Of a stretch of DNA of 64,000 bases, positions 5,644 to 60,059 are shown one piece after another. Location: the NCBI GenBank assembly GCA_964415175.1, contig CAYPYG010000001.1, positions 17,975 through 81,974 on the forward strand, in the 5' to 3' direction. Below the pieces are notes generated by a model. That model saw only the letters and a list, made by a program, of their open reading frames with translations, had not been told where the DNA came from and did no database searches. The translations under genes were made by a program, and so were the position numbers. The first letter of the stretch is position 1, and the number at the start of each line of letters is the position of its first letter. The DNA is from an uncultured Elusimicrobiaceae bacterium. GTDB taxonomy: Bacteria; Elusimicrobiota; Elusimicrobia; Elusimicrobiales; UBA9959.

Positions 5644-5653
5644 GGCCCGGCCG

Positions 5654-6643: not shown

Positions 6644-6665
6644 AGCGGGGGAAAGGGGAACTCGG

Positions 6666-7364: not shown

Positions 7365-8068
7365 AGCTTTCCGTCATAATCCCCTCCTACAACGAGGCCG
7401 CGACCGTGCGCGAGATCATCGCTCGCGTCCGCCGCGTGCCCGTGGACATGGAGAAGGAGATCATAGTGGTCGACGGCGCCTCTTCCGACGGCACCAGGGA
7501 GGCGCTGCGCGCAGAGGAGGCCGTCCCCGGCACGCGCGTCATATACGAGGAGCGCCGGGAAGGAAAGGGGGCCGCCGTGCGCAAGGGCCTCGAGGCCGCC
7601 ACGGGCGAAATCGCCCTCATACAGGACGCGGACCTGGAGGTCAGTCCCGAGGAATATCCCGCCCTGCTGCGTCCCATCCTGGACGGCGAGAGCGACGTGG
7701 TCTTCGGCTCCCGCTTCCTGGGCGGGGCCAGGTTCAGGACCGCCAGCCTGATAGCCAACCGGGTGATCATCGCCCTGACCAACCTCCTTTACGGCGCCGG
7801 CATGACCGACGTGCTCACCTGCTACAAAGTCTTCAGGCTCAGAACGCTGGAGGGGATGAGGTTCACCTGCAACGGCTTCGATTTCGATACCGAGCTGGCC
7901 GTCAGTCTCATCAGGCGCGGGGTCAGGATAAAGGAGATCCCGATAAGCTACACCCCCCGCACCTACGGCGAGGGCAAGAAGATCAACTGGAAGGACGGCT
8001 TCATGGCGGTCTGGAACGTTATCAGGCTCCGGTTCTCGCGGCGAGCGGGGAAGGCGGGACTTCCATGA
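7361..8068 (+). CDS. Family 2 glycosyltransferase, ArnC/GtrB/DPM1-like
   Basis: MKLSVIIPSYNE...QDADLE...TCYKVFR...EGKKI motifs; ATGA overlap with the upstream gene. Confidence 0.8.
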   Translation: MKLSVIIPSYNEAATVREIIARVRRVPVDMEKEIIVVDGASSDGTREALRAEEAVPGTRVIYEERREGKGAAVRKGLEAATGEIALIQDADLEVSPEEYPALLRPILDGESDVVFGSRFLGGARFRTASLIANRVIIALTNLLYGAGMTDVLTCYKVFRLRTLEGMRFTCNGFDFDTELAVSLIRRGVRIKEIPISYTPRTYGEGKKINWKDGFMAVWNVIRLRFSRRAGKAGLP

Positions 8069-11776: not shown

Positions 11777-11897
11777 CGGCCCGCGGCGCCGGCCTCCCCC
11801 CTCCATCCCTATTTGATACAATCTGTTGTCCGGGACGCGCTTTTTCCGCCGCCGTCCCCGGATACCGCGATGTCGCCGGAACGATGACGGACTCCGA

Positions 11898-13352: not shown

Positions 13353-14774
13353 ATGGCGAAACTCCTCTTCCTCCAGAACATCGAGTACGAGTTCCTCGGT
13401 CCGATGTACATCTCCGCGGCCGTGAAGCGCAGGCACGCCTGCGAGCTGGCGCTGGGCGGCGGGCCCGAGGATTTCTACGCCGTCATGGAGTCGTTCAGGC
13501 CGGACGTGATAGCCTTCTCCATCATGACCGGCTCCCACCGCTGGGCCAGGGAGACGGCGAAAGCGCTGAAAGCCCGGTACCGGACGCTCTCGCTCTTCGG
13601 CGGCGCGCATCCGACCTTCTTCCCCGAGTTCGTCGAGGAGGAAGGCGTCGACGTCATCTGCAGGGGCGAGGGAGAGGACGCCGTCCTGGACCTGCTGGAC
13701 GCGCTGGACGCCGGCAAGGACATCTCCGGCATCGCCAACCTCCACGTGAAGACCGGCGGCGCAGTAACGAGGAACCCGGTGCGGCCGCTGCGCGCCGACC
13801 TCGACGAGTACCCCTTCCCTGACCGCGCGCTCTACCGCGCGCTGGGGGCCGTCGCCGACCGCAGCGTCAGGAACGTCATAACCTCGCGCGGCTGCCCCTT
13901 CCACTGCACCTTCTGCTTCGAGGACAGCATAAGGCTGCTCTACAGCGGCAAGGGCCGGCACGTGCGGGTGAGGGACCAGGACAGGGTGATAGAGGAACTG
14001 CGGGGCCTCAAGGAGGCCGGCGAGGTCCGGACCGTCTATTTCTGCGACGACGTCTTCGGGCTGGACAAGCGCTGGCTTTACGGCTTCCTCGACAGGTACA
14101 AGCGCGAGATAGGCCTCGATTTCCTCTGCCTGGCGCGGGCGGACATAATAAGCGCCAATCCCGATTACGCCCGCCGTCTCAGGGACGCCGGCTGCAGGAG
14201 CGTTTTCTTCGGCATCGAGACCGGCTCGGAGACGCTGCGCAACAAGGTCCTCGGGAAAGGCGTGAAGGACGCCGACATCTACAAGGCCGCCGCGCTGCTG
14301 CACGAAGCCGGCATCACTTTCAGGACCTACAATATCGTCGGGCTGCCGGACGAGACGCTCGAGGACGCCCTCGGGACCATCAGGATGAACGTCCGGATAA
14401 AGGCCGATTACCCCTGGTGCTCCATCTTCTCCCCCTATCCACGCACGGCCCTCACGGCCTACGCCCAGGAGCGGGGCTACCTGGAAAAGGACTTCAGCCC
14501 GGACTCCATCTCCTCCTCCTTCTTCATAGACTCCAGGCTCAGGATGCCGGACATACGCAGGCTCGAGAACCTGCACAAGTTCTTCCAGACCGCCGTGATC
14601 TGGCCCTGGACCCTGCCGCTGGTGAAACTCCTGATAAAACTGCCGCCCAACCCGCTGTTCAACCTATGGTTCGGCGCCGTATATTTTTATATATTCCTAA
14701 AGAGCGAAAAGCGGAGTTTTTTCAGGACCTGCGTCTTCGCGCTCAAGAACTACGGCCACCTCCTGAAAAAATAG
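13353..14774 (+). CDS. Cobalamin-binding-domain (class B) radical SAM protein, paralog 2, with hydrophobic C-terminal tail
   Basis: SRGCPFHCTFC motif; starts 1 nt after the preceding stop. Confidence 0.8.
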   Translation: MAKLLFLQNIEYEFLGPMYISAAVKRRHACELALGGGPEDFYAVMESFRPDVIAFSIMTGSHRWARETAKALKARYRTLSLFGGAHPTFFPEFVEEEGVDVICRGEGEDAVLDLLDALDAGKDISGIANLHVKTGGAVTRNPVRPLRADLDEYPFPDRALYRALGAVADRSVRNVITSRGCPFHCTFCFEDSIRLLYSGKGRHVRVRDQDRVIEELRGLKEAGEVRTVYFCDDVFGLDKRWLYGFLDRYKREIGLDFLCLARADIISANPDYARRLRDAGCRSVFFGIETGSETLRNKVLGKGVKDADIYKAAALLHEAGITFRTYNIVGLPDETLEDALGTIRMNVRIKADYPWCSIFSPYPRTALTAYAQERGYLEKDFSPDSISSSFFIDSRLRMPDIRRLENLHKFFQTAVIWPWTLPLVKLLIKLPPNPLFNLWFGAVYFYIFLKSEKRSFFRTCVFALKNYGHLLKK

Positions 14775-14792
14775 GCGGCGCGGGACCCGGAA

Positions 14793-15962
14793 ATGATGAA
14801 CATAAACCTCCTTAAATTCCTGGACAAGTACGCCGGCCTGCCCCTCTGCCTGCTGCTGACCGTCCTGACCCGCCTGTCCGGCCGGGAAACCCCCTCCCTG
14901 CGCGGGGAGGAGATACGCAAGACGCTGGCCATGAAGTTCTTCGGCATGGGCAGCATACTACTGCTGGCCCCGACCCTGGCGGAGTTCAGGAAGACCTATC
15001 CCGGCTCCAGGCTCGTCTTCCTTACCCTGGGCAGGAACCGGGAGATAAGCCGGGCGCTGGGACTTTTCGACGAGATCGTCACCCTGGACATAGACGGGGG
15101 CTGGGCCGCCTTCGCGGGGTCTTTCGCGTCCGTCATGCGGTACCTCTGGAAGGAACGCTTCGACCTGGTCCTGGACTTCGAGTTCTTCACCCGTTTCTCG
15201 GCGATAGTCTCGTTCTTCACTTTCGCCGGGATCAAGGTGGGCTATCACGCCTGGGAGACCTGGCGGGGCGGCATACACACCATAAGGGTCCCGTTCAACA
15301 GGTACTGGCACATAAGCGACAGCTTTTACGCCCTCGGCACCCACATAGGCCTGCCCAGAAAAGAGAAACTGGAGCCGGTCCGGCCCGTCGTGGACCAGGC
15401 GGACCGCGACGCCGTGAAAGAGCTGCTCGGGGCGGGCGGGGTCTCCGGCGCGTACGTCTGCGCCTATGTCAGCGCGGGGGACCTGAGCGTGGAACGCCGC
15501 TGGCCGGCCGACAGCTTCGCCCGCCTGCTCGGAGGCCTCCTGGAGCGCGGAGGCCCCCCTATCGTACTGACCGGGTCCGGCAAAGAGGTGCCCTATGTCC
15601 GGGAGATGCGCCGCCGGCTGAACGACCCGCGCGTGCTGGACCTCTCCGGCAGGCTTTCCGTCACGCAGCTGGCAGCCCTGCTGGAGGGCGCGGAACTCAT
15701 GATCTCCAACGACGGAGGCCCCCTCCACCTGGCCGCCGCCATGGGGACCCGCACCGTCTCCTTCTTCGGGCCGGAAACGCCGGTCATGTACGGTCCCCTG
15801 GGAGAAGGGCACTCGGTCTTCTTCAAGGGCATAGAGTGCAGCCCGTGCATAAACGTCCACGACCGCAAATCCGTGCGCTGCTACTGGACCGAGCCGAAGT
15901 GCATGCAGGCCATAGACCCGGAAGAAGTCCTCGCAGAGGTCGAAAAAAAACTCGCCAGATGA
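14793..15962 (+). CDS. Family 9 glycosyltransferase (heptosyltransferase-like)
   Basis: C-terminal LSVTQLAALLEGAELMISNDGGPLHLAAAMGTRTVSFFGP is typical of GT9. Confidence 0.8.
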   Translation: MMNINLLKFLDKYAGLPLCLLLTVLTRLSGRETPSLRGEEIRKTLAMKFFGMGSILLLAPTLAEFRKTYPGSRLVFLTLGRNREISRALGLFDEIVTLDIDGGWAAFAGSFASVMRYLWKERFDLVLDFEFFTRFSAIVSFFTFAGIKVGYHAWETWRGGIHTIRVPFNRYWHISDSFYALGTHIGLPRKEKLEPVRPVVDQADRDAVKELLGAGGVSGAYVCAYVSAGDLSVERRWPADSFARLLGGLLERGGPPIVLTGSGKEVPYVREMRRRLNDPRVLDLSGRLSVTQLAALLEGAELMISNDGGPLHLAAAMGTRTVSFFGPETPVMYGPLGEGHSVFFKGIECSPCINVHDRKSVRCYWTEPKCMQAIDPEEVLAEVEKKLAR

Positions 15963-17356
15963 AAAAAGTACTCCTGCTCAACCCTCCCGGCGAACGCCTC
16001 TACATCCGCGACTATTTCTGCAGCAAGGTCTCACAGGCCGACTACCTGACCCACCCGGTGGACTTCGTCGTCCTGAGCGGCATACTGGCCGGCGAGTACG
16101 AGGTCGGGCTCGTCGACGCCATCGCCGAGAAGCTTTCGCCCGAAAGGGCGCTGGAGGCGATACGCCGCTTCGACCCCTTCGCCGTGATCTGCCTGTTCGG
16201 CTCGGTCAGCCTGCCCGAGGACCTGGCCTTCGCGGCCAGGGTACGGTCGGCCTGCCCGGACGCCAGGCTGGTGGGAATAGGCGACGTTTTCCGCGAAGGC
16301 GGCGGCAAATACCTCGGCCCGGCGTCCCCCCTCGACGCCCTGCTCCTCGATTTCGCCGCCCCGGACATCCTCTCCTACCTGAGAGGCGATCCCGCGTCGG
16401 CGGCCAATATGCTGATACGCTCGGGGAGCGAAGTACTTCCTCTCCGGCAGGGGACCCCCGGTCCCCGCTTCGAGATACCGGTGCCCCGCCACGAACTCTT
16501 CTCCGGCCGCGGTTACCGCCACCCTTTCGTCAGGAGCAGGCGCTTCGCCACCGTGCTGACCGATTACGGCTGCCCTTTCCACTGCAGCTTCTGCGTGATG
16601 GGCACGCTGGGCTTCAGGTCCCGCGCGCCGGAGTCCGTCATGGCGGAACTGGAGCATATCAGAAGCCTGGGGATCACCGAGGTGCTCTTCCACACCCAGA
16701 CCTTCGGCGCGCGGAAGGACGAGGCCAGGGAGCTCTGCCGCCTGATGATAAGCGCCGGCCTCGGGCTGGGCTGGACCTGTTTCTCCAGGGTCGACGTGGC
16801 GGACCCGGATCTGCTCTCGCTGATGCGGGAGGCCGGCTGCCATACCGTCATCTTCGGGGTGGAGTCCGGCTCCGACGAGATACTGAAGAAGTACGGCAAG
16901 GGCTACACGCGCGGACAGGTAGTGTCGGCCGTCGATCATTGCGCCGCCATAGGCATAGAGACGGTCGGGACCTTCATCCTGGGCCTCCCGGAAGAGACCC
17001 ACGCCACGATGCGGGAGACCCTGGACCTGCTGCGCGCGATAAAGCTCGATTACGCCTCCATAAACGTGGCGGTCCCGCGGATGGGGACCCCGCTAAGGGA
17101 GGAGGCCATCGCCCACGGGCTGGTGGACGGGGATTTCGCGGTGATGGACCAGTCCGGGGCGGAGGTGGCCATGGGCAGCAGGTCGCTCTCCCGGGAGGAG
17201 ATAGCGGAGTACCGCAGGCGCGCCGTCTCGGCCTTTTATTTCAATACGCGCTATATCCTCAGGCGCCTGGCCCGGGTCAGGTCGCTCTACGATCTGACGC
17301 GCCAGGTGAAGCAGGCCGCCGCCCTGGCGGCCAATACCTGGTTCGGGGAGAAATGA
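15959..17356 (+). CDS. Cobalamin-binding-domain (class B) radical SAM protein, paralog 3
   Basis: DYGCPFHCSFC motif. ATG 15959 overlaps the GT9 stop (ATGA); the track start 15836 is an extension. Confidence 0.8.
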   Translation: MKKVLLLNPPGERLYIRDYFCSKVSQADYLTHPVDFVVLSGILAGEYEVGLVDAIAEKLSPERALEAIRRFDPFAVICLFGSVSLPEDLAFAARVRSACPDARLVGIGDVFREGGGKYLGPASPLDALLLDFAAPDILSYLRGDPASAANMLIRSGSEVLPLRQGTPGPRFEIPVPRHELFSGRGYRHPFVRSRRFATVLTDYGCPFHCSFCVMGTLGFRSRAPESVMAELEHIRSLGITEVLFHTQTFGARKDEARELCRLMISAGLGLGWTCFSRVDVADPDLLSLMREAGCHTVIFGVESGSDEILKKYGKGYTRGQVVSAVDHCAAIGIETVGTFILGLPEETHATMRETLDLLRAIKLDYASINVAVPRMGTPLREEAIAHGLVDGDFAVMDQSGAEVAMGSRSLSREEIAEYRRRAVSAFYFNTRYILRRLARVRSLYDLTRQVKQAAALAANTWFGEK

Positions 17357-17357
17357 G

Positions 17358-18569
17358 ATGAACGCCAGGGCCGGGCTTTACGTCTTCCTCGCCGCGCTGG
17401 CGCTGCGCCTCGGCCTGCTGTTCGGCGCGCCGTCCATACCCGAGGCCTACGAGCGCTTCGACGCCAGGGCCTACGAGGCCGTGGCGGTGAACCTGATGCG
17501 GGGCAACGGCTTCGTCGAGGCGCCGGGCCGCCCCACCGACGGCCGCCCGCCGGTCTATCCCCTGTTCCTGGCCGCGGTCTATTCGGTCACGGGCCACAGC
17601 GAATTCGCCGTGAGGCTGCTACAGTGCTTCATCGACTCGGGCAGCGCCGTCCTCCTCATGACCCTGACCGGCCTTATCTTCCCGCCCGCCGCCGCGCTGG
17701 GGGCGGGACTCCTGGCGGCGGCCTACCCGCCGTTCATACTTTACAGCAACGTGCGCCTGACCGAATGTCTTTTCATGTTCCTTTTCCTCTGGGAATGCCT
17801 GCTGCTGACCAGGGCCTTCAGGGAGGGAGACAACCGCAGGTTCGCCCTGGCCGGCATACTGCACGGCGTCGCCGTCCTCGTCAGGGCGCCGACGCTGCTT
17901 TTCCCCCTCTTCCTGCTGCCCGTCGTGCTCTTCAAACGCTTCCGCGGCCTGCTGAAGGGGTTCGTCCTTTACGCGGTGATAAGCACCGCCCTGATATCCG
18001 TCTGGACGGTGCGCAACTATTACGCCCACGGCGGCTTCCTGGCGGTCAATACCGGCAGCGGCTGGCTGATGTGGTACGCCATACAGGACGACGCCTGGGA
18101 CGGCGACAGGATACGGGAGCTCAGCCCGCTGCGCGAATACCCGGAGCTGGCGGGGCTGCCCCGCCACGAGATGGAGAGCATAGTCGGCAGGAAGGTGATG
18201 AAGTACGCGCTCACCCATCCCGTCGATTATTCGCTGAAACTGGCCCGGAACTTCCGCCGCCTGTGGACCCTCCCGATAGGCAAAGTGATGATCTCCGATA
18301 TCTCACCGCTCTACGGCGCGCTCTACCAGGCGGCCCATTACCTCCTGCTCGCCGCGGCCCTCTGCGGGTTCTTCCTGGTCACGAAGTCGAATATCATCCC
18401 CCTCCTGCCCGCGCTGCTCTACCTGGCCTACGTCTCGCTCATGCACAGCGTGATCCTCGGTACCCCCAGGTACCGCCTGCCCTACGATCACTTCATGCTC
18501 ATGTTCTGCGCCGCCGGGCTGGTCTTCCTCCGCGGCGCCGCCGGGAAACCGAAGGGGACCGCCAGGTGA
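17358..18569 (+). CDS. Polytopic GT-C glycosyltransferase (ArnT / PMT_2-like), second copy
   Basis: About 10 TM helices; N-terminal region resembles ArnT/PMT_2-family enzymes. Confidence 0.65.
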   Translation: MNARAGLYVFLAALALRLGLLFGAPSIPEAYERFDARAYEAVAVNLMRGNGFVEAPGRPTDGRPPVYPLFLAAVYSVTGHSEFAVRLLQCFIDSGSAVLLMTLTGLIFPPAAALGAGLLAAAYPPFILYSNVRLTECLFMFLFLWECLLLTRAFREGDNRRFALAGILHGVAVLVRAPTLLFPLFLLPVVLFKRFRGLLKGFVLYAVISTALISVWTVRNYYAHGGFLAVNTGSGWLMWYAIQDDAWDGDRIRELSPLREYPELAGLPRHEMESIVGRKVMKYALTHPVDYSLKLARNFRRLWTLPIGKVMISDISPLYGALYQAAHYLLLAAALCGFFLVTKSNIIPLLPALLYLAYVSLMHSVILGTPRYRLPYDHFMLMFCAAGLVFLRGAAGKPKGTAR

Positions 18570-19429
18570 ACTGCCCGGTCTGCGGGTCCGGTCCGCTGAA
18601 GAGGGGCCGCGCGCTGGGCGCCGGCTTCCTGCACTCCTGCCTGTCCTGCACCGCGCGCTTCATAAGCCCGCAGCCGACGGACGCGGAGCTCAAGGACATG
18701 TACGGCGAGGGCTATTACGGCTCCTGGGGCCTCTCCGGCGGCGGGGAGCAGGACGCGCTCAAGGCCATGAAGACCGCCACCTTCGGGCTCCGGCTGGACC
18801 TGATCTCCCGTTATAAGACGGCCGGCGACATACTCGACGTGGGCTGCGCCACCGGCTTTTTCATGGAGGCCGCCGAGAAAAGGGGCTTCCGCGCCTACGG
18901 CGTCGAGATCTCCGATTATTCCAGCGCGGCGGCCGCGGCCAAGTTCGGCGCCGGAAGGGTGCACCACGGCGTCCTGGAGGACTGCCCTTTCCCGGAAAAG
19001 AGTTTCGACGCCATCGCGATGTCCGACCTGCTGGAGCACGTGCGGGACCCGCTGCGCACGCTGGCCGCCGCGCGCAGGCTGCTCCGGGACGACGGCATGA
19101 TCATGATAATGACGCCGGACACCGGTTCGCTCACGGCCAGGCTGATGGGCGCGAGATGGACGCACTACAAGCCGGAGCACCTGTTCTACTTCAACAGGCG
19201 CTCCCTCTCGCTGCTGGCGAAGAAGTCCGGCTTCGAGGCCGTGCGCTTCGAGGCCGCCCGGAAGGCGATGAACCTGGAGTACCTGCGCACCCAGTTCGCG
19301 GCTTATCCTCACCCGCTCCTCACCCCGGCCAGCGCCCTCCTGGCGCGGATAACGCCGCGCGGAGCGAGGTCCGGCAATTTTTTCCTGACCATGGGGGAGA
19401 TGACGGCCGTACTGCGGCCCTCGAGCTGA
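18566..19429 (+). CDS. Class I SAM-dependent methyltransferase with N-terminal Cys4 zinc-ribbon-like motif
   Basis: CPVCGS...CLSC motif; ILDVGCATGFF SAM motif I. The GTG start overlaps the upstream stop (GTGA). Confidence 0.75.
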   Translation: MNCPVCGSGPLKRGRALGAGFLHSCLSCTARFISPQPTDAELKDMYGEGYYGSWGLSGGGEQDALKAMKTATFGLRLDLISRYKTAGDILDVGCATGFFMEAAEKRGFRAYGVEISDYSSAAAAAKFGAGRVHHGVLEDCPFPEKSFDAIAMSDLLEHVRDPLRTLAAARRLLRDDGMIMIMTPDTGSLTARLMGARWTHYKPEHLFYFNRRSLSLLAKKSGFEAVRFEAARKAMNLEYLRTQFAAYPHPLLTPASALLARITPRGARSGNFFLTMGEMTAVLRPSS

Positions 19430-19465
19430 AGGACCCGGCGCCGTTCCCGGCGCGAAAATGATAGT

Positions 19466-19474
19466 TGCTATAAT
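19466..19474 (+). promoter_or_regulatory. Extended -10 box TGCTATAAT, 9 nt upstream of ATG 19484
   Basis: Consensus TGnTATAAT in an AT-rich gap; no Shine-Dalgarno sequence. Confidence 0.4.
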
Positions 19475-19483
19475 ATCCTCCCG

Positions 19484-20788
19484 ATGATAAGGACCGACAC
19501 GCTGATCATAGGCGGCGGCCTGGCCGGTCTTTCGGCCGCCAGGGAGCTCAGGGGCCGGAAAAAGGTGTTCCTGGCCGAACGCGAGGCGCGTTACGGCGGC
19601 CTGGCCGCGACCATACGCAAAGGCGGCTTCCATTTCGACTATTCCGGGCACCTGCTCCACCTGCGCTGGCCGGAGACGACCAGGCTCATTCTCGGCGCCC
19701 TCGGCTCCAATGTCCGCCGGCTGCGGCGCGACGCGCGCGTCTTCGCGCACGGCCGCTGGACCCCTTTCCCTTTCCAGGCCAATCTCGCCGGCATGCCTCC
19801 CGCGGTGCGTTCGGAGTGCGTGCGGGGTTTCCTGGCGGCCCGCGCGGCCGGCGGCGGCGCGCCCGGCGACGGGAGCGAGACCTTCGAGAAATGGAGCCGC
19901 CGCGTCCTGGGCGACGGCATCTCAAGGCACTTCATGCTGCCCTACAACGCCAAGCTCTGGCAGTACCCGCTGGACCGGCTCACTACCGAATGGTGCGCGC
20001 CTTTCGTGCCGGTCCCTTCCCCCGCCGAGATACTCAAGGGCGCCTACGGCCGGTCCAGGCCCGGCCTGGGCTACAACGCCGTCTTCCACTACCCGCGAAA
20101 GGGAGGCATCGGCGCGCTGGCCGCCGCCCTGGCCCTCGGGACCTCCGGCACGCATCTCGGCATCGAGGTGGAGAAAGTGGACCTGCGCGCCCGGAAAGCC
20201 CGGGTGCGGCACTTCGGGGAGGTCCGTTTCCGCCGGCTCATAAACACGGCGCCGCTCGACGAATTCGTGGCCCTGTGCGCCGACGCGCCGGCCGCCGTGC
20301 GCCGCGCCGCGGCGCGGCTGCGGCGCAACACCGTCTACGTGCTGAACCTGGGCTTCAGGGAACCGGCGCCCGCCATGCACTGGGGCTATTTCCCCGGCGC
20401 GGCCTTCCCCTTCTACCGGGCCGGGGTCTCCGGCAATTTCTCCCCCTTCCTGTCGCCGGCCGGGCGCTCCTCCTTCTACATAGAGATAGCCACCGACGGC
20501 CGCCCGCTGGACCTGGTATCCGCGGAGCGGGCCTGCGTGAAAGGACTGCTGGCCTGCGGGATGCTGAAGGACGCCGGACGGATCGAGGAGCGGCTCTGGC
20601 TCAAGATCCCCTGCGCCTACGTCGTCTACGACGCGGACAGGGCGGCGGCGCTGCCGGTACTGCGCGGCTGGCTCAGGGAGCGGAAGGCCCGCTCCATCGG
20701 CAGGTACGGCGGCTGGAAATATTCCTTCATGGAAGAAAGCGTGAAGGAAGGGCTGGAGGCCGCGCGGGAGATCGCCGCGGGCCTCTGA
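19484..20788 (+). CDS. FAD-dependent oxidoreductase (amine oxidase / UDP-galactopyranose mutase-like superfamily)
   Basis: LIIGGGLAGLSAA dinucleotide-binding motif; C-terminal GRYGGWKY resembles the Glf/amine oxidase family. Confidence 0.7.
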   Translation: MIRTDTLIIGGGLAGLSAARELRGRKKVFLAEREARYGGLAATIRKGGFHFDYSGHLLHLRWPETTRLILGALGSNVRRLRRDARVFAHGRWTPFPFQANLAGMPPAVRSECVRGFLAARAAGGGAPGDGSETFEKWSRRVLGDGISRHFMLPYNAKLWQYPLDRLTTEWCAPFVPVPSPAEILKGAYGRSRPGLGYNAVFHYPRKGGIGALAAALALGTSGTHLGIEVEKVDLRARKARVRHFGEVRFRRLINTAPLDEFVALCADAPAAVRRAAARLRRNTVYVLNLGFREPAPAMHWGYFPGAAFPFYRAGVSGNFSPFLSPAGRSSFYIEIATDGRPLDLVSAERACVKGLLACGMLKDAGRIEERLWLKIPCAYVVYDADRAAALPVLRGWLRERKARSIGRYGGWKYSFMEESVKEGLEAAREIAAGL

Positions 20789-46958: not shown

Positions 46959-47918
46959 TCAGTCCGCCGCGACCCACGCGGCGGTCCGCGTACCCTTCAG
47001 CTTGCCGTTGAACCCTTCCACCCACGCGTTATAGCGGGTCTGCACCTGTTTCCCCTCTCCCAGGTATTCGGGGTTCAGCGCGTTCTTCACGAAACCTTCC
47101 GCGACGGGGAAGGCCGTAACGAGCTGCGCGTGCGGCTTCGACGAGTCCTTGACCGAATAGACCAGCAGGTAGGCGTTCCCGCCGGAGGTGACGGCCCCGA
47201 AAGGAAGGAAGTCGGTGCGCAGCGAGACGCTCCGCTTGCGGGTGAGGGCGACGGTCTCGTTCAGCCGGAAATGGCCCGGGGCTTTCCAGGCCCTGGCGGC
47301 GGAGCCGCAGGCGTAGGACGCTTTTGCCAGCCTGGCGCGGGCCGCGCCGTCGTCGGCGAAAGCCGCGGCGCCGGACACGCAGGTGATATTGGCCAGCAGC
47401 GTGCCCTCCGCGGGAGAAGGGCCCAGCGCGCCGCGCGCGAAACCGAGTCCCGCCTCTATGTCGTCGCGCACCCAGCGGGCGCGCTTGAAACCGAACTTGG
47501 TCGGCAGCAGGCTGAAAAGATAGCCGTAGGAGTGCTCCATGCCGGCGTGGACTATCTTGCCGCGCGGGCCGGGGAGGGCCAGCTCGCCGGCGAGGAAGGA
47601 AAGTATGGAGTCGTGGACTATGCGGGCCTTGGCCATCTCGTCGAAGTTGACGCTCTCCCCCCAGAGTTCCTTGAGGTCCGTATTGAGCTTGTCGGAGGCC
47701 AGCTGGGCGGCCAGGCCCGGGGCGTGTTCCGCCAGCACCGGCGCCAGCGGCAGGCTCCCGGCGGCGTTGGCTTCCATCACCCGGGCCATGCCGGCCCAGG
47801 GGCAGTCCAGGGCGTCCTCGGCGGCGGGATCGCCCGGCGCGGCGGGCGCCGGGCACTGGTAGGCGTGCAGCGCCGCGGCGAGGAGGAACAGCGGGAGAAC
47901 GAGGAGAGCGCGCTTCAT
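46959..47918 (-). CDS. Secreted hypothetical protein (319 aa)
   Basis: Signal peptide MKRALLVLPLFLLAAALHA; no family recognised. Confidence 0.55.
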   Translation of the reverse strand: MKRALLVLPLFLLAAALHAYQCPAPAAPGDPAAEDALDCPWAGMARVMEANAAGSLPLAPVLAEHAPGLAAQLASDKLNTDLKELWGESVNFDEMAKARIVHDSILSFLAGELALPGPRGKIVHAGMEHSYGYLFSLLPTKFGFKRARWVRDDIEAGLGFARGALGPSPAEGTLLANITCVSGAAAFADDGAARARLAKASYACGSAARAWKAPGHFRLNETVALTRKRSVSLRTDFLPFGAVTSGGNAYLLVYSVKDSSKPHAQLVTAFPVAEGFVKNALNPEYLGEGKQVQTRYNAWVEGFNGKLKGTRTAAWVAAD

Positions 47919-47919
47919 A

Positions 47920-48267
47920 TCAGGCCCTCCCCCGGAAGTCGGAAAGGCTGACCGTGAAGTAACGGGTGCCGCAGGGATAGCCGGGATAGGGGCCGCATTC
48001 CTCGTCCGGATTTATCGGTTCCTGGACGGCGCGGGTGGTCTTGGACACTTCGTCCGGCGCCCGCTCGACGGCCGGCCGTACGCGCCCGTCGGCGGCCGGC
48101 GCGGGCGGCTCGGCCGCGGTCCGCGCGTTCGAGCCGTTCCCGGCGCAGCCGAAAAGACCCAGCACGGCGGCGGCCAGGGCGCCCAGAAGTCCGGCGCGCG
48201 AAAAGCCGGCGGCCTCCCTTTCGCTCATCCCGGTCTTCAAAGCCAGTTCCCGCAGTTTCTTTTCCAT
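47920..48267 (-). CDS. Small membrane/lipoprotein-like hypothetical protein (115 aa)
   Basis: AGGAG upstream of the ATG; hydrophobic segment ending LGLFGC (lipobox-like); 1-nt gap to the next gene. Confidence 0.5.
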   Translation of the reverse strand: MEKKLRELALKTGMSEREAAGFSRAGLLGALAAAVLGLFGCAGNGSNARTAAEPPAPAADGRVRPAVERAPDEVSKTTRAVQEPINPDEECGPYPGYPCGTRYFTVSLSDFRGRA

Positions 48268-48330
48268 AAGGTCGGCTCCTTTATTTCGGACTCCCGGACA
48301 TTGTACAAAAGCGGGGGCCGCCTTATTTAG

Positions 48331-48336
48331 TAAAAT
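48331..48336 (+). promoter_or_regulatory. -10-like TAAAAT, 6 nt upstream of the ispH-fusion ATG 48343
   Basis: Same -10-N6-ATG geometry as other genes in the window. Confidence 0.3.
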
Positions 48337-48342
48337 CCACTC

Positions 48343-50061
48343 ATGTCCTACCGGGCGCAGATAACGGTGGCCGCCAGCGCGGGCTTCTGCCCGGGCGTCA
48401 AAGGAGCCATCGACAAGGTGCTGGAACTGGCCGCCGCCGGCAAGTCCCCCGTCTACACGCTGGGGCCCCTCATCCACAACAAGCAGGTCATAGAGACCCT
48501 GGAGGAAAAAGGCGTGCGCGCCGTCAAGGACGCCTCCGAGATAAAGGAGAAGGGCGCGACCCTGGTCATACGCGCCCACGGCATACCGCCGGGACTCGAG
48601 GCCGCAGTCAGGGCGCTGGACCTCAATGTCGTGGACGCCACCTGTCCGCTGGTGAAGCGGGTGCACCGCAATATAAAGGAATGGGCCGACAAGGGCTACG
48701 ACACCGTAATAGTAGGCGACGCCGACCACGCCGAGGTCGTCGGCCTGATGGGCTATACCGGAGGCCGCGGCCACGTGGTCAGCGGGCCGGAGGAAGCGGC
48801 GCGGCTGCCCCGCCTGGAGAAGGCCAATATAGTCGCCCAGACCACGCAGGGAACGGACGTTTTCCTCAGGACCGTGGAGGCGCTGCGGCCGAACACCGGC
48901 GAACTGATAGTCTCCAACACCATCTGCGCTCCCACCCGCGAGCGCCAGAGCGAGACCATGGACCTCTCGCGCCGCAGCGGCCTGGTCATAGTCGTCGGCG
49001 GCAAGAACTCGGCCAATACGGCGCGCCTTTTCCGGATCTGCGCCGGCCTGGCCCCCCGCGCCGTCCACATAGAGCGCGAGGACGAGCTCTCGCCGGAACT
49101 GTTCGACGGGGTCACCTCCGTCTTCATAACCGCCGGCGCCTCGACGCCCGCCTGGATGATAGAGAAGGCGCTCGCCCGCGCGCGCGAGCTGACCGAGGTG
49201 CGCCGCTCCCCGCTGGCGGCCGGGCTGGAATTCTTCTGGCTGCTGCTGGTGACGAGCTGCGTCTTCACGGCCGCGGGCGCCGTGGCGCTGGCCTACGCCT
49301 CGATGCGCCTGCAGGGCCTGCCGATAAGCCCAGCGATGCTGGCCCTGGCCGGCCTCTTCGTCTTCAGCCTGCACCTGACCAACCGCGCCGCCGAGAAAGG
49401 CGCCGCCGTGCCCGACCGCGCCAAGCAGCTGCTCTTCGTCCGCTTCGGCCGGGCCGCGCGGGCCGTGGCCCTGCTGGCCGGCGTGGCGGCCATAGCCCTG
49501 GCCGCCGGCACTACGGGCACGCTGGCCCTGCTGCTGACCGCCTTCTTCTGGGCCATGGGCATGCTCTACCCCTATAAGATGCCTCTGGGCCTGGACTCCC
49601 TGGCGAAATTTCCCGGCTCCAAGGACATCATGACCGCGCTGGGCTGGGCCTTCGTCTGCGCCGCCCTGCCCGCGCTCTCCTACGGTTCGCTGGCCTACAA
49701 ATCGTCGCAGCTGGCGGTAGTCTTCGCCTTCACGCTGGTCTTCGCGCGCTCGGTCATGTTCGGCATCAGCCACGTGCACAGCGACATGATCGTCGGCAAC
49801 GAGAACTTCTACAAGGCGGCGGGACCGAAAGCTACCTACGCGGCCGTCCTGTCCATCTTCATCTTCATGGAGGCGATACTCATCGCCCTCAAGAACATGG
49901 CGTGGAAGGAACCGCTGGTCAACGCGATGATAGCGGGGATGTTCTACTACCTGGGGCTGATGGTATTCTTCTATTTCCGGCGGATGCCGGAGAAGACGCT
50001 GGCGGAAACGCTGATAGACAGCCAGTTCCTCATCCTGGCCGGCCTGGTGCTGGTCTCCTGA
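48343..50061 (+). CDS. ispH: 4-hydroxy-3-methylbut-2-enyl diphosphate reductase (IspH/LytB) fused to a ~285-aa polytopic membrane domain
   Basis: The N-terminal ~285 aa carry the three cluster Cys contexts GFCPGV, DATCPLV and NTICAPT. The ORF continues uninterrupted into ~8 hydrophobic helices. Confidence 0.85.
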   Translation: MSYRAQITVAASAGFCPGVKGAIDKVLELAAAGKSPVYTLGPLIHNKQVIETLEEKGVRAVKDASEIKEKGATLVIRAHGIPPGLEAAVRALDLNVVDATCPLVKRVHRNIKEWADKGYDTVIVGDADHAEVVGLMGYTGGRGHVVSGPEEAARLPRLEKANIVAQTTQGTDVFLRTVEALRPNTGELIVSNTICAPTRERQSETMDLSRRSGLVIVVGGKNSANTARLFRICAGLAPRAVHIEREDELSPELFDGVTSVFITAGASTPAWMIEKALARARELTEVRRSPLAAGLEFFWLLLVTSCVFTAAGAVALAYASMRLQGLPISPAMLALAGLFVFSLHLTNRAAEKGAAVPDRAKQLLFVRFGRAARAVALLAGVAAIALAAGTTGTLALLLTAFFWAMGMLYPYKMPLGLDSLAKFPGSKDIMTALGWAFVCAALPALSYGSLAYKSSQLAVVFAFTLVFARSVMFGISHVHSDMIVGNENFYKAAGPKATYAAVLSIFIFMEAILIALKNMAWKEPLVNAMIAGMFYYLGLMVFFYFRRMPEKTLAETLIDSQFLILAGLVLVS

Positions 50062-50598
50062 TCACTTTTTGTTGAATTCTTCGCGGAGCCGGAGGCGGCC
50101 GCGCAGCAGGCGGGACTTGAGTGCCCCGACGGTTATTTCGAGCACCTTCGCGGCCTCTTCCAGCGACATTTCCTGTATGTCGACCAGGGTGATGGCCATC
50201 CTGTAATCCACCGGCAGGGCCGAAAGCGCCCTGGCGACGCTCTCGGAAAGGTCCTTCTTTATCGATTCCTCGTGGGCGACGGCGTCCTTTACGTCCTTGA
50301 TGTCCTCGAGGCTGACCAGCTTCTCGCGCTTCTTCCTGCGGAACTTCATCCAGCAGTTGTTGGCCGCGATGCGGTAGAGCCAGGTGCCGAAGCCGGACCT
50401 GCCCTTGAAGCTCTTTATCTTGGTGAAGGCGGTCAGCATCGTCTCCTGGTAAACGTCCTCCGCCTCCGAGGGCAGGCCGCTGCAGACATAATGCGCCAGG
50501 CCGTAGATGCGGTCCTTGTGCAGCTTTATCAGTTCCTCGAAACTGGCGATGTCGCCGTCCTTCGCCTTGGCGATGAGCGCCTCTTCCTTCGCGTCCAT
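50062..50598 (-). CDS. ECF-type RNA polymerase sigma-70 family factor
   Basis: Region 2 (DVYQETMLTAF...WLYRIAANNC) and region 4 (EMSLEEAAKVLEITVGALKSRL). ATG 50598 lies 6 nt downstream of TGTGTATAAT. Confidence 0.85.
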   Translation of the reverse strand: MDAKEEALIAKAKDGDIASFEELIKLHKDRIYGLAHYVCSGLPSEAEDVYQETMLTAFTKIKSFKGRSGFGTWLYRIAANNCWMKFRRKKREKLVSLEDIKDVKDAVAHEESIKKDLSESVARALSALPVDYRMAITLVDIQEMSLEEAAKVLEITVGALKSRLLRGRLRLREEFNKK

Positions 50599-50604
50599 AC
50601 TCCG

Positions 50605-50614
50605 ATTATACACA
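50605..50614 (-). promoter_or_regulatory. Extended -10 TGTGTATAAT for the ECF sigma gene (leaderless geometry)
   Basis: The minus strand reads TGTGTATAAT-cggagt-ATG. Confidence 0.45.
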
Positions 50615-56520: not shown

Positions 56521-56573
56521 CAAAACCCGCCAGCGACCGCCAGCAGTTTTCACCAGGACGGCGGGGAGTTAAG

Positions 56574-56609
56574 AAAGCCGCGCTTTAAAGGCGCGGCTTT
56601 TCGTTCTTT
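56574..56609 (+). terminator. Intrinsic terminator-like hairpin
   Basis: AAAGCCGCGC-TTTAAAG-GCGCGGCTTT followed by TCGTTCTTT. Confidence 0.6.
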
Positions 56610-56681
56610 CCCGGCGGCGCGAAAGCGAGCGAGAGAGCGGACTGGCGCCGCCGCGCCCATTAATAATATAGTGTCTTCCGA

Positions 56682-58796
56682 ATGGGTACAGGGGATACGC
56701 GGGAACCGGCCGCCGCGCCGTATTTCGCCGCGGCCATCTTCCTCGGCGCCTTCCTGCTTTTCCAGGTGCAGCCGATGATGGCCAAGGCCATACTGCCCTG
56801 GTTCGGCGGCGCGCAGGCGGTCTGGACCACCTGCATGCTGTTCTTCCAGACGGCGCTGCTGGGCGGTTATCTCTACGCCCACCTCCTCACCACCCGTCTC
56901 AGGCCGGACGCGCAGACGGCGCTGCACCTGGCGCTGCTCCTGCTCAGCGCGCTCTTCATACGCATACTGCCCTCGGCCGACTGGCGCCCGCTTAACAGCG
57001 GGGCTCCCGCGTTCAGGATACTGCTGCTGCTGGCGGTCAATGTCGGTCTGCCGTTCTTCCTGCTCTCCGCCACCAGCCCGCTGCTGCAGTCCTGGTACGG
57101 CGCGGCGGCGCCGGGCAGTTCCCCCTACAGGCTCTACGCTCTCTCCAACGCGGGGTCGATGCTGGCGCTGCTCAGCTATCCTTTCCTGGTGGAACCCTTC
57201 CTCGAACTGCGCGCGCAGGCCGGCCTGTGGGGCATCCTCTATATACTCTTCGCGATAGCGCTCTGGCGTTCCTCCCGGGTCTATCTGGCCGCCCGGCCGG
57301 GCCCGCTTCCGGCGCCGTGGTCCGCCGCCGCGGCCGGCCGCCCCCCGGCCTCCGCGATCGCGTTCTGGACGCTGCTCGCCGCCTGCGGCTCGGCGATACT
57401 GCTCTCGGGCACGGCGCAGCTGACGCAGAACGTGGCGCCGGCGCCTTTCCTCTGGATACTGCCTCTCTCTCTCTACCTGCTCTCTTTCATCCTCTGCTTC
57501 GAGAGCGACCGCTGGTACTCGCGCGGCAGGTGGACGGTCTATTTCGGCTTCGCCTGCGCCGGAACGGTCTACCTCCTGTCCGCCTGGATAAAGACGCCGC
57601 TGGCGCTGCAGCTGCCCATACATTCGCTCTCGATCTTCATCGCCTGCATGGTCTGCCACGGCGAACTGGCAGCGCTCCGTCCCGCAGCGGGGCACCTGAC
57701 GCTCTTTTATGTCGCGGTCTCGGCCGGCGGCGCGCTGGGCGGACTGCTGACGGCGCTGGGCGCGCCGCTGCTGCTGGACGGGCCGTGGGAATACCACATC
57801 GCCTGGGGCACGCTGGCGGCCGCGGTGCTGGTCCTGCTCGCCGGCCGGGCCGGCCTGCGCTCCGGGCGCGCGCGCCTCGGCGGCGCGGCGCTGCTGGCCC
57901 TCTACGGCGGCTTCGTCTACGCGCTTTACGCCAATTATTCCGAGGAATCCTCCTCGCGCCTGGACATGCGGCGCAACTTCTACGGCACGCTGCAGGTCTA
58001 TGAATGGGAGCATTACGGCGCGCAGGCCCTGACCCTGATGCACGGCCAGATCGACCACGGCTTCCAGTTCCTCGAAGGGGACCCGCGCAGGGACAGGCCG
58101 GTCTCCTATTACGGGCCGGACTCGGGCGCCGGGGCGGCGGTGCGCGCGCTGCGCCGCAGGCGGGGCGGCCGGGCGGGGCTGGAAATGGGCGTCGTCGGGC
58201 TGGGGGCCGGCATCATGGCCGCCTGGGGCCGGAGCGGCGACAGGCTGACCTTCTACGAGCTCAACCCGCTGGTGACGCGGCTGAGCTACGCCTATTTCAC
58301 CTACCTCGATTCGACGCGCGCCGGCGTGGCGGTGGTCATGGGCGACGCGCGGCTGAGCCTGGAACGCGAAGCGGCCGGGAAGGCGCGCCGTCAGGACCTG
58401 CTGGTCCTCGACGCTTTCAGCAGCGACGCCATACCGCTGCACCTCCTCACGCGCGAAGCCTTCGAAGTCTATTTCAGGCGGCTCAAGCCCGGCGGAGTGC
58501 TCGCCGTGCACGTATCCAACCGTTTCCTGGACCTGGAACCGCTGGTGGCCGGTCTCGCGGAGGAACGCGGCCTGGCCTGGACGGTGACGGACTCTTACGA
58601 GGTCCCGGAGGACGGCGCCTCGGCCAGCACCTGGGTGCTGGTCAGCGCCGACGCGGAACTCCTGTCGGGCCCGCCGGTCTCGAGCCGTTCGCGCGGGCTG
58701 GAGGAAGGCCGCGCGCCGCTGGTCTTCACGGACCGCCACAGCGATCTCTTCAGGCTCATCCGCGGCGGCTGGCTGGCCGGGGCGGACATGGAATGA
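56682..58796 (+). CDS. Polytopic membrane domain fused to a spermidine-synthase-like methyltransferase fold
   Basis: About 12 TM helices in the N-terminal two-thirds; C-terminal LLVLDAFSSDAIPLHLLTREAF...LKPGGVLAVHVSN is typical of spermidine-synthase-like proteins. Confidence 0.75.
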   Translation: MGTGDTREPAAAPYFAAAIFLGAFLLFQVQPMMAKAILPWFGGAQAVWTTCMLFFQTALLGGYLYAHLLTTRLRPDAQTALHLALLLLSALFIRILPSADWRPLNSGAPAFRILLLLAVNVGLPFFLLSATSPLLQSWYGAAAPGSSPYRLYALSNAGSMLALLSYPFLVEPFLELRAQAGLWGILYILFAIALWRSSRVYLAARPGPLPAPWSAAAAGRPPASAIAFWTLLAACGSAILLSGTAQLTQNVAPAPFLWILPLSLYLLSFILCFESDRWYSRGRWTVYFGFACAGTVYLLSAWIKTPLALQLPIHSLSIFIACMVCHGELAALRPAAGHLTLFYVAVSAGGALGGLLTALGAPLLLDGPWEYHIAWGTLAAAVLVLLAGRAGLRSGRARLGGAALLALYGGFVYALYANYSEESSSRLDMRRNFYGTLQVYEWEHYGAQALTLMHGQIDHGFQFLEGDPRRDRPVSYYGPDSGAGAAVRALRRRRGGRAGLEMGVVGLGAGIMAAWGRSGDRLTFYELNPLVTRLSYAYFTYLDSTRAGVAVVMGDARLSLEREAAGKARRQDLLVLDAFSSDAIPLHLLTREAFEVYFRRLKPGGVLAVHVSNRFLDLEPLVAGLAEERGLAWTVTDSYEVPEDGASASTWVLVSADAELLSGPPVSSRSRGLEEGRAPLVFTDRHSDLFRLIRGGWLAGADME

Positions 58797-58841
58797 GCAT
58801 CTGAAAGCGGCCGGACGGGCCCCGGCCGCCGCGGAGGAAAA

Positions 58842-60059
58842 ATGAAAGTAATATCGACAGCGCTGCTCCTGCTCCTGCCCTGGCCGGCGGCGGCCAGGAT
58901 AGAGGACAGGACCGAAGAACTTTATACGGCCGCCGCGGCCGGCGACCTGAAGACCGTCAGGGCCATACTGGAGGAGAGCGACCAGAACGTGAACGTCTCC
59001 TACGACGACAACGACACCTCCCCCCTGATGCTGGCCTGCCGGGCGGGGAACGAGGAACTGGCGGAACTGCTGATAAAACATGGCGCGGACATCGCGGCCG
59101 TGGACGCCGGCGGCAGGCCGGTGGAAGAATACCTCCTCCCGCCGGCCGGGCCCGCGCATAAGCGGCTGCGCCGGCTGCTGTACGCGGCGGCGGCCGAAAA
59201 GAGCGTACAGCTGCCCTACGCCTGGTCGACGCTTTTCATGCCCGACCCCGCCTCTTCCCCGGCGCTCTCCCCCGACCCCCAGGTACTGCCCGCGGGCAAC
59301 GCCGCCGACGGCGACCCTGCCACCGCCTGGGCGGCGAAAGGGACCGGCGCGGAACTGTGGCTTTTCATAAATCCCGGGGCCTCTTCGCTGCGCGTGAGCA
59401 ACGGCTGCGCGAAAACCAGGGCGCTCTTCAAGGCCAATAACCGCGCGAAGAAACTGGCCGTCTCAGTCTGGACCGCCGAGCATCTGGACGGCGACGTCAC
59501 GGAAACGGCGCGCGCCTGGAAAGCCGCCAGACTGACCGCGGACGCCGCGCTGCAACTCAAGGACGCCCCGGAAACGCAGGAGTTGCCCCTTCCTTTCAAC
59601 TGGGAGGAACTGCGTTTCAGGCGGGCGGAAGCCGTCTCTTCCCTGATGAAGCGGGCCGATTACCGCGGCAGGAAGCGGCTCTATTCCTCCTTCGTCCTGC
59701 GCCTGGAACCCCTGGAGGTGTACCGCGGCTCCGGATCCGGCGACACCTGCGTCTCCGAGCTCGCCGCCGGCGGCCGCTGGCTTAACGAGGCCGCGCTGCC
59801 GGGCGTCTGGGAACGGCCTTACGGCGGCGCGAGCGAGACGATATCGCTTTCCACCCCGCAGGAACGCCTCTATTCGCTCAAACGGGGGGACAAGACCCTG
59901 CATTCGGGCAACTGGCGCGTCGAGGACGGTCTGCTGGTCATGGAGCACGAGGCGGGCGCCGCGCGCTACGGGGCCTTCGTGGAGACGCGAGGCGGGAAGA
60001 AGACCCTCCGCCTGACCGGCGAAGGCGGCGAAACGCTTATTTACCGGCCGGCGCGCTGA
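58842..60059 (+). CDS. Secreted ankyrin-repeat protein with discoidin-like middle domain
   Basis: Signal peptide; ANK units (LYTAAAAGDLKTVRAIL, SPLMLACRAGNEELAELLIKHGADI); NAADGDPATAWA...G.ELW motif. Confidence 0.65.
   Translation: MKVISTALLLLLPWPAAARIEDRTEELYTAAAAGDLKTVRAILEESDQNVNVSYDDNDTSPLMLACRAGNEELAELLIKHGADIAAVDAGGRPVEEYLLPPAGPAHKRLRRLLYAAAAEKSVQLPYAWSTLFMPDPASSPALSPDPQVLPAGNAADGDPATAWAAKGTGAELWLFINPGASSLRVSNGCAKTRALFKANNRAKKLAVSVWTAEHLDGDVTETARAWKAARLTADAALQLKDAPETQELPLPFNWEELRFRRAEAVSSLMKRADYRGRKRLYSSFVLRLEPLEVYRGSGSGDTCVSELAAGGRWLNEAALPGVWERPYGGASETISLSTPQERLYSLKRGDKTLHSGNWRVEDGLLVMEHEAGAARYGAFVETRGGKKTLRLTGEGGETLIYRPAR

Follow-up and report, generated by a model that had tools for sequence, protein, structure and literature searches.

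IspH is the last enzyme of the bacterial isoprenoid-precursor pathway (the methylerythritol phosphate, MEP, pathway), converting (E)-4-hydroxy-3-methylbut-2-enyl diphosphate (HMBPP) to isopentenyl diphosphate (IPP) and dimethylallyl diphosphate (DMAPP). The enzyme is essential and a drug target, and flux control at this last step is poorly understood. Here we describe a gene at positions 48343-50061 of a 64,000-nucleotide stretch of DNA (the window; contig CAYPYG010000001.1) from an uncultured Elusimicrobiaceae bacterium, in which IspH is joined in a single reading frame to a UbiA-like membrane domain. Such IspH-UbiA hybrids, termed "Rosetta stone" proteins, were described by Rao, O'Dowd, Li, Wang & Oldfield (2015, Chem Sci 6:6813; PMC4746011). 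Their set of 47 sequences was "all in sulfate-reducing bacteria" and showed two DXXXD repeats; the UbiA domain was classed as CDD PT_UbiA_5 and modelled on ApUbiA, and it was proposed to localise IspH to the membrane and/or to use IspH-derived isoprenoids (PMC4746011). A literature search found no later paper characterising these hybrids, and the UbiA half, in a class known since 2015, is without an assigned function. The fusion class as such is therefore not new, which makes the surprise of the present gene a modest one. The original prediction for this locus, made from sequence alone, had named IspH-S1 as the known fusion, a statement that the 2015 report supersedes; the published hybrids also constitute what it had listed as evidence against its own proposal, a common annotated family regularly fused to IspH.

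The Elusimicrobia protein resembles the hybrids of Rao et al. in having an N-terminal IspH and a C-terminal UbiA-like domain with nine transmembrane (TM) helices within one open reading frame (ORF) of ~570-590 aa. The C-terminal domains are homologous, pointing to common descent, and the same tethering or channelling hypothesis applies to both. In contrast to those hybrids, the Elusimicrobia branch falls below the Pfam UbiA threshold, carries HxxxD (with a variable first position) for DxxxD and NxxxE...A for NxxxDxxxD, so that the two DXXXD repeats are not found, and has sister lineages that appear to have lost the domain repeatedly.

Three further systems provide points of comparison. The IspH-RPS1 fusions of Clostridia and Fusobacteria (NF000907) also carry IspH at the N-terminus and an extra C-terminal module, but the partner there consists of soluble RNA-binding S1 repeats with no membrane domain. 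NF000907 gave the best NCBIfam E-value for the IspH part of the window protein, matching that part only, with 303 bits against a cutoff of 624. Removal of the S1 repeats left IspH activity unaffected in the 2015 study (PMC4746011), which provides a precedent for an accessory C-terminal module. Canonical UbiA proteins (ApUbiA 4OD4/4OD5, AfUbiA 4TQ3/4TQ4, E. coli UbiA/MenA, archaeal digeranylgeranylglyceryl phosphate (DGGGP) synthase 6M31/7BPU) share with the window domain the nine-TM fold (TM-score 0.58-0.69), an N-terminus inside the cell (N-in), a polar pocket that opens on the cytoplasmic side between the loops TM2-3 and TM6-7, and conservation of an Asn, an acidic residue, a Tyr, Lys/Arg and the last Asp. 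Unlike them, the window domain lacks a direct sequence match to PF01040 or to a solved structure, has a non-carboxylate at one of four Mg2+ ligand positions and Glu at another, and is joined to a soluble Fe-S enzyme. Finally, UBIAD1 in complex with HMG-CoA reductase (HMGCR; 8DJK), a top fold match, is likewise a UbiA-fold membrane protein bound to a key isoprenoid-precursor enzyme, although that complex is eukaryotic, belongs to the mevalonate pathway and is non-covalent, and its UBIAD1 component is enzymatically active. The stability of HMGCR is modulated by UBIAD1, which responds to geranylgeranyl diphosphate.

From motif conservation, selection and domain loss we favour, with a probability of roughly 55%, a model in which the UbiA-like domain acts as a ligand-binding membrane dock. 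The domain would still bind prenyl (di)phosphates but no longer carry out standard two-Mg2+ catalysis, and would serve to position IspH at the membrane and possibly to modulate it.

The fusion gene and its family

The gene and the features of its IspH half are as follows (residues aligned to 3KE8 where an E. coli equivalent is given).

48343..50061, + strand: ispH-ubiA-like fusion gene, 572 codons plus stop, a single ORF without internal stop
48343..49197, + strand: IspH (LytB) domain, residues 1-285, from Pfam, TIGR, PDB and Foldseek matches
48388..48390, + strand: Cys16, [4Fe-4S] ligand in GFCPGV, equivalent to E. coli C12
48643..48645, + strand: Cys101, [4Fe-4S] ligand in DATCPLV, equivalent to E. 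coli C96
48727..48738, + strand: H129-A-E131-V, catalytic His and Glu, equivalent to E. coli H124 and E126
48925..48927, + strand: Cys195, [4Fe-4S] ligand in NTICAPT, equivalent to E. coli C197

Residues 6-281 match PF02401 (E 7e-84, 281.7 bits against a threshold of 24.5), and the score with TIGR00216 (259.9 bits) lies above the curated IspH cutoff of 187.85. Searches of PDB sequences with the IspH half returned 3DNF from A. aeolicus (E 4e-63) and 3KE8 from E. coli (E 3e-43), and Foldseek matched it to IspH structures at TM-scores of 0.83-0.84. The three cysteines were found in the contexts given by the original prediction, which had called this half a complete IspH. Further residues were assessed at the positions of E. 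coli H41, H74, H124, E126, T167, S225/N227 and S269; H45, H79, H129, E131, the threonine of QTT, NSxN (N-S-A-N-T) and TAGASTP of the window protein have counterparts in both E. coli 3KE8 and A. aeolicus 3DNF. The IspH half is complete in these alignments, with every catalytic residue kept. The fused gene would be the orthologue of ordinary ispH, the housekeeping HMBPP reductase making IPP and DMAPP, because its place in the genome is the one that stand-alone IspH takes in sister lineages. Public annotation, including the RefSeq entries of Candidatus Avelusimicrobium, names these proteins plain IspH and so misses half of the protein.

A frameshift or a lost stop, introduced by assembly or sequencing, could in principle have joined two genes. 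We consider the fusion across species, using a scan of one genome per GTDB species queried with membrane-domain motif patterns (Elusimicrobia type: ENFY, FPxSKDI). All 43 loci recovered come from Elusimicrobia/Elusimicrobiota metagenome-assembled genomes (MAGs), the nearest being WAS_Bin_5 (97% identical), and at 43/43 IspH lies in frame directly upstream of the membrane domain with no stop, in proteins of ~571 aa. The scan was anchored on the membrane domain, so that split or stand-alone versions with the same motifs would have shown up; none was present in this species-level search. The GC content of third codon positions (GC3) in the fusion frame is 0.87 and 0.92 in the two halves, and the AlphaFold2 (AF2) model of the full-length fusion is confident (predicted local distance difference test, pLDDT, 94.6; predicted TM-score, pTM, 0.90). 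One observation favours an artefact, in that a gene caller splits the metagenome contig L003 into two genes. However, L003 differs by a single in-frame TAA within one reading frame and does not hold two independent genes, and 75 of the 80 best canonical-type metagenome loci are also uninterrupted. Because the same unbroken fusion occurs in 43 independent genome assemblies, it is a real, conserved gene and no assembly artefact, an explanation to which we give next to no weight. Homology E-values, GC3, the ratio of nonsynonymous to synonymous substitution rates (dN/dS, below) and the 43/43 conservation make the fusion signal more than chance. The uninterrupted frame had been part of the original prediction, which had also proposed asking whether relatives conserve or split the fusion; among the genomes anchored on the membrane domain, they conserve it.

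Several loci deserve separate mention. The TAA of L003 (1494-1496; JGI 3300042535, contig present in 2 samples) is the lone in-frame stop, at fusion codon 324 just past TM1; relatives have Glu or Gln at this codon, and the 237 codons beyond it stay intact and conserved. Either a sequencing error or incipient loss of the domain, as in sister lineages, could explain it. Three short metagenomic hits without LytB (P0002, P0004 and P0005) were considered as stand-alone domain genes and rejected, since contig edges or the in-frame TAA account for them; two of the three are truncated at contig edges with the frame still open. At two canonical-type metagenome loci (L068 1018-2763 and L069 1308-3053), IspH and UbiA lie in different overlapping frames, an apparent frameshift. 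In the window, an antisense ORF (47920-49779, - strand, 619 aa) is longer than the fusion ORF; it was rejected as spurious, typical of 66% GC DNA, and would mislead gene calling by longest ORF.

Hybrids were recovered from Nitrospinota, Syntrophobacteria/Deltaproteobacteria, Desulfobacterota-type MAGs, Nitrospirota, Planctomycetota, Candidatus Edwardsbacteria and Elusimicrobiota, and a metagenome scan yielded at least 566 confirmed stretches, with the in-frame fusion in the 75 of 80 best loci noted above. The hybrid family thus reaches well beyond sulfate reducers, which is new; it is far larger, and spread over more taxa, than the published set suggested. In a tree of the C-terminal domain, the 49 Elusimicrobia-type sequences form one clade with nothing else inside; this clade is sister to six "GDD" intermediates, and both stand apart from an 84-member, mostly canonical group. 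When the tree is rooted on stand-alone UbiA proteins, the Elusimicrobia clade joins the other hybrid C-terminal domains. On this evidence the Elusimicrobia fusion is a divergent branch of the IspH-UbiA hybrid family.

The membrane domain and its remodelled pocket

The membrane half comprises the following features.

49198..50058, + strand: UbiA-fold membrane domain, residues 286-572, nine TM helices, from AF2, Foldseek and hhalign
TM helices in the AF2 full-length model, by residue: 290-324, 330-350, 369-391, 393-408, 426-446, 453-478, 495-518, 523-544, 551-571
49372..49419, + strand: first motif, H344-L-T-N347-R-A-A-E351-K-G-A-A355-V-P-D358-R359, from the hhalign column map
49567..49626, + strand: cytoplasmic TM4-TM5 loop with conserved Y409, K412 and S426-K427-D428, from clade conservation
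49762..49815, + strand: second motif, G474-I-S-H477-V-H479-S-D481-M-I-V-G-N-E487-N-F-Y-K491, from the hhalign column map

The confident full-length model contains nine helices, the number found in UbiA, where about eight had originally been counted. In both this model and that of the domain on its own (pLDDT 82, pTM 0.84), the best PDB match of the domain in Foldseek is ApUbiA 4OD4 (TM-score 0.66-0.69, E 2e-5 to 6e-5). The top matches are 4OD4, 4OD5, 8DJK, 4TQ3, 6M31 and 8J8K, so that ApUbiA is followed by UBIAD1, AfUbiA, DGGGP synthase (DGGGPS) and mycobacterial DPPR synthase. Lys and Arg residues number 12 in cytoplasmic loops against 1 outside, which indicates an N-in topology; this places both motif loops on the cytoplasmic side, as in AfUbiA and E. 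coli UbiA (PMC4106721).

Direct family searches were negative. Pfam and NCBIfam assigned no family to the C-terminal 287 aa, giving only a chance-level VbhA match; PF01040 (UbiA) matched neither the whole protein nor the C-terminal 287 aa, even at E <= 1; and a profile of the C-terminal domain searched against the sequences of solved structures in the PDB returned nothing at E <= 10. Against stand-alone, Pfam-positive UbiA proteins, hhalign gave 99.7% probability (E 1.9e-26, 265 columns), and an exhaustive hidden Markov model (HMM) search of 1.84 billion representatives returned 385 clusters (defined at 50% identity), 198 of them at E <= 1e-10. These are mostly proteins of ~575-590 aa with the domain at residues ~285-575; IspH sequence is present in 119 of the 155 proteins retrieved, and most of the others are fragments. 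The HMM of the C-terminal domain reaches fusions scoring as Pfam LYTB + UbiA with E-values of ~1e-30 to 1e-13, and 6 of the 7 distant fusions scanned pass the Pfam thresholds for both families. As the predicted fold, the hhalign comparison and the exhaustive HMM search provide three independent lines of evidence, we conclude that the membrane domain belongs to the UbiA prenyltransferase superfamily. The HMM and Foldseek searches, both suggested at the outset, therefore lead to the same superfamily and bear out the UbiA-like character first proposed for this region.

A word-index protein search with the same domain returned 5 matches only, compared with the 385 clusters of the HMM search. Extreme rarity of the domain was accordingly rejected, the word index being weak on a hydrophobic query. 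Hydrophobic queries appear to saturate word-based candidate lists, and an apparent rarity of TM domains in such searches is untrustworthy.

Within the domain, the two polar stretches singled out by the original prediction as non-canonical counterparts of the UbiA Asp-rich motifs, LHLTNRAAEKG...D (residues 343-358) and HSDMIVGNENFYKAAG (residues 479-494), are both present and conserved across 44 Elusimicrobia copies. Here 44 copies denotes the genome and window set, 49 all Elusimicrobia-type sequences and 89 the other fused proteins. Columns of the hhalign alignment were mapped onto the ligand assignments of AfUbiA (PMC4106721), as follows.

AfUbiA N68, direct Mg2+ ligand: N347; Asn in 44 of 49 Elusimicrobia-type and in 80 of 89 other fused proteins
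AfUbiA D72, direct Mg2+ ligand: E351; Glu in 48 of 49 Elusimicrobia-type; Asp in 40 and Glu in 14 of 89 other fused proteins
AfUbiA D76, no direct ligand: A355; Ala, Val, Ser or Gly in Elusimicrobia-type; variable in other fused proteins
AfUbiA D198, direct Mg2+ ligand: H477; His 34, Asn 9, Ser 2, Ala 2, Gln 1 and Gly 1 of 49 Elusimicrobia-type; Asp in 66 and Glu in 9 of 89 other fused proteins
AfUbiA D202, direct Mg2+ ligand: D481; Asp in 49 of 49 Elusimicrobia-type and in 89 of 89 other fused proteins

The first Asp-rich motif, N-D-x-x-D-x-x-x-D, is thus not found in its standard form: the Asn is kept, the first Asp is replaced by Glu and the second by Ala, and a three-residue deletion in the Elusimicrobia branch has removed the N-[DE]-P segment. 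In the second motif D-x-x-x-D is replaced by H477-V-H-S-D481, of which the second Asp is invariant across the clade. Among the four direct Mg2+ ligands, the only true loss is at the D198 position; one further ligand has changed from Asp to Glu. Around motif II a new pattern, S-H-x-H-x-D...G-x-E-N-F-Y-K, shows no variation among the 44 genome and window copies, with G474, D481 and E487-K491 conserved in 44/44. Y409 (48 of 49 in the clade, 87 of 89 other fused proteins), K427 (48 of 49 and 81 of 89) and R469 are conserved throughout. In the wider family motif II mostly reads D..D...D, with Asp at -7 in 72/99 and at -4 in 71/99 sequences. By this mapping the first metal/diphosphate site and the basic residues would be kept and the second site would lack one carboxylate, while position 477 seems no longer constrained to a metal ligand. 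The HxxxD variant of motif II in the Elusimicrobia branch, set in a pocket that is otherwise invariant, is new.

In AfUbiA, N68, D72, D198 and D202 bind Mg2+, and alanine mutants at the EcMenA equivalents of the Mg2+ ligands are inactive (PMC4106721). The AfUbiA D198A and D202A mutants, on the other hand, only weaken binding of geranyl diphosphate (GPP), by 45-fold and 21-fold (PMC4106721). It is this difference that leads us to propose binding in the absence of normal catalysis, and the domain is probably non-catalytic or of altered chemistry.

The motif data bear equally on an alternative in which the fusion is an active bifunctional enzyme, a prenyltransferase with altered ligands (Asn, Glu, His/Asn and Asp, possibly with Mn2+, Fe2+ or Zn2+ for Mg2+) that transfers IspH-derived DMAPP/IPP, or elongation products, to a membrane acceptor. 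Rao et al. put forward this channelling hypothesis (PMC4746011), and the tethering and channelling idea of the original prediction is essentially the same. It can draw on the solid UbiA fold and homology, on metal-binding side chains at 3/4 direct ligand positions together with the conserved Tyr, Lys and Arg, on pocket residues invariant across 44 species at a dN/dS of ~0.1, on the predicted docking of IspH at the pocket mouth, and on the mostly canonical D..D...D of the wider family, which makes the ancestor probably an enzyme. However, the D198-equivalent varies among His, Asn, Ser, Ala, Gly and Gln in proteins that are otherwise conserved, and Ala, Gly and Ser cannot ligate a metal; Ala at the equivalent position abolishes EcMenA activity (PMC4106721); and motif I has lost its N-[DE]-P segment. 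Moreover, no acceptor-pathway gene is found among the conserved neighbours, and close relatives have dropped the domain on several occasions at least, leaving the locus without a replacement, which is unexpected for a step of an essential pathway. An active enzyme is the main alternative, possible but on balance rather unlikely.

Selection, domain loss and the proposed dock

Between the window gene and its five closest relatives, dN/dS is 0.095-0.165 in the UbiA-like half versus 0.060-0.152 in the IspH half. The two ranges are indistinguishable, which indicates that the domain is functional where present. One lineage thus combines a remodelled metal-binding motif with strong purifying selection.

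The closest relatives of the IspH half itself are LytB-only proteins of 279-299 aa with 67-72% identity. Three stand-alone IspH loci (289-296 aa) were confirmed on long contigs and occupy the same syntenic slot as the fusion, with QueG-like, BirA, NadC and UvrB genes upstream and an extracytoplasmic function (ECF) sigma factor and/or OPT transporter gene downstream. At these three verified loci no remnant of the membrane domain was present, and the proteins end at the domain boundary. Stand-alone forms are scattered among fused ones in a tree of the IspH domain. For this tree Fitch parsimony reconstructs a fused root and a minimum of 12 changes, and identity between a stand-alone IspH and a neighbouring fused one can be as high as 84-86%. 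The simplest reading of these data would be an ancestral fusion followed by repeated clean deletions. Stand-alone IspHs in the same slot of sister lineages imply repeated clean loss of the domain, which is a new observation. The domain would be beneficial where kept, because it is under strong purifying selection, and yet dispensable, because it has been cleanly deleted many times in related lineages.

Repeated loss might suggest that the domain is an inert membrane anchor or a decaying remnant that binds no ligand, and the stop after TM1 in the metagenomic copy L003 and the failure of Pfam to recognise the domain would fit this explanation. Against it, dN/dS in this half (0.095-0.165) equals that of the essential IspH half, a single helix would suffice for anchoring, and the invariant residues are not lipid-facing hydrophobics but polar and charged positions in the cytoplasmic motif loops (N347, R348, E351, K427, D428, R469, D481, E487, N488, Y490 and K491). 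We consider an inert anchor improbable.

These results are most readily accommodated by the membrane dock. With the UbiA N-terminus and both motif loops on the cytoplasmic side, the topology and structural model would place IspH on the cytoplasmic face, directly above the pocket opening, and the pTM of 0.90 suggests rigid docking and not a loose tether. The pocket, as read from the motifs, would keep the first metal/diphosphate site (N347, with E351 for Asp) together with Y409, K427, R469 and D481. The domain could therefore still bind an isoprenoid (di)phosphate while no longer working as a standard two-Mg2+ prenyltransferase. Its main role would be to localise IspH beside the isoprenoid metabolism of the membrane, possibly with an additional tuning of IspH activity.

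A more specific version of such tuning is a pseudo-prenyltransferase sensor, in which catalysis has been lost, prenyl-(di)phosphate binding is kept, and the domain, built into the membrane, responds to the level of a downstream isoprenoid lipid by gating the docked IspH allosterically. The behaviour of UBIAD1 provides a precedent for a sensing or regulatory role, although such a role is speculative for the fusion domain, and we regard the sensor as an unlikely outcome. If true, it would be a covalent bacterial analogue of UBIAD1-HMGCR, and a feedback device at the final MEP step would be known for the first time.

Several considerations weigh against the dock. Metals can be coordinated by both His and Asn, and Glu can stand in for Asp, so that a different metal might still support catalysis at this site. 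A pocket that is remodelled yet invariant, at a dN/dS of ~0.1, suits an enzyme no less than a binding module. Both the docking geometry and the clustering of pocket residues are predictions from pTM and alignment. The 44/44 conservation of the ENFY and FPxSKDI columns is partly circular, since the scan patterns included both; positions 474, 477, 479 and 481 and motif I are free of this circularity. All trees are neighbour-joining trees without support values, the verified stand-alone loci number three, and some of the short LytB-only proteins could be fragments. In addition, expression of a full-length hybrid failed in the 2015 study (PMC4746011).

The Elusimicrobia offer a natural experiment, in which the domain is present or cleanly deleted at the same locus in close genomes. 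A comparison of genomes with and without it, or of the fused and stand-alone proteins, offers a practical way to learn the role of the domain.

Genomic neighbourhood

In the window, the neighbours of the fusion gene encode an alpha-amylase-family protein, a Cache-domain protein, an RNA U5-methyltransferase, a hypothetical protein, a convergent ECF sigma factor, an OPT transporter and a pair of ABC-2 transporters. The upstream genes are shared only by the 97%-identical relative L006. The neighbours in other Elusimicrobia are the housekeeping genes UvrB, NadC, BirA and QueG-like, with ECF sigma and OPT. Synteny comparison revealed no isoprenoid or glycan partner conserved beside either the Elusimicrobia-type or the canonical-type genes. 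One distant feature of the window is relevant here.

~4.4-18.6 kb: glycan-type cluster with a DegT aminotransferase, an NAD-dependent sugar dehydratase/epimerase, three radical S-adenosylmethionine (radical-SAM) proteins (one B12-binding), two PMT_2 glycosyltransferases (GT-C) and a GT9 heptosyltransferase-like protein

The original prediction had suggested that the fusion is coupled to this polyprenol-phosphate-dependent cluster and supplies its carrier lipid. The window does hold such a cluster, but its end lies ~27 kb or more from the fusion gene, it is not adjacent to the gene in relatives, and the upstream window genes are kept only in L006. The housekeeping neighbours in other Elusimicrobia, and the PlsY, ParAB and YacP genes that adjoin canonical-type fusions, likewise argue against the link. 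We find such coupling very improbable, so that, of the idea first put forward, the tethering and channelling part coincides with the published hypothesis and the connection to the glycan cluster is unsupported. The glycan-type stretch as a whole extends over window positions ~4390-20788, with an amine-oxidase/phytoene-desaturase-like flavoprotein (19484-20788) after the cluster.

Beside canonical-type fusions (L054-L133), a convergent plsY gene (glycerol-3-phosphate acyltransferase, PF02660) lies ~125 bp downstream in 33 of the 58 loci that have a downstream flank, for example at L132 8846-9469 (- strand), and ParA, ParB, YacP and DUF3842 are found upstream. Inherited gene order may account for the plsY adjacency, which might otherwise point faintly to a glycerolipid link; it is a weak lead only. 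Near the window gene, two ORFs have no Pfam family: 46959-47918 (- strand, 319 aa), with a hydrophobic signal-like N-terminus, and 56550-59159 (- strand, 869 aa). The stop of the fusion gene abuts the stop of the convergent ECF sigma gene (50062-50613, - strand), with the boundary at 50061/50062 and zero intergenic space, and a fused or stand-alone ispH is paired with an ECF sigma gene in ~21 Elusimicrobia loci.

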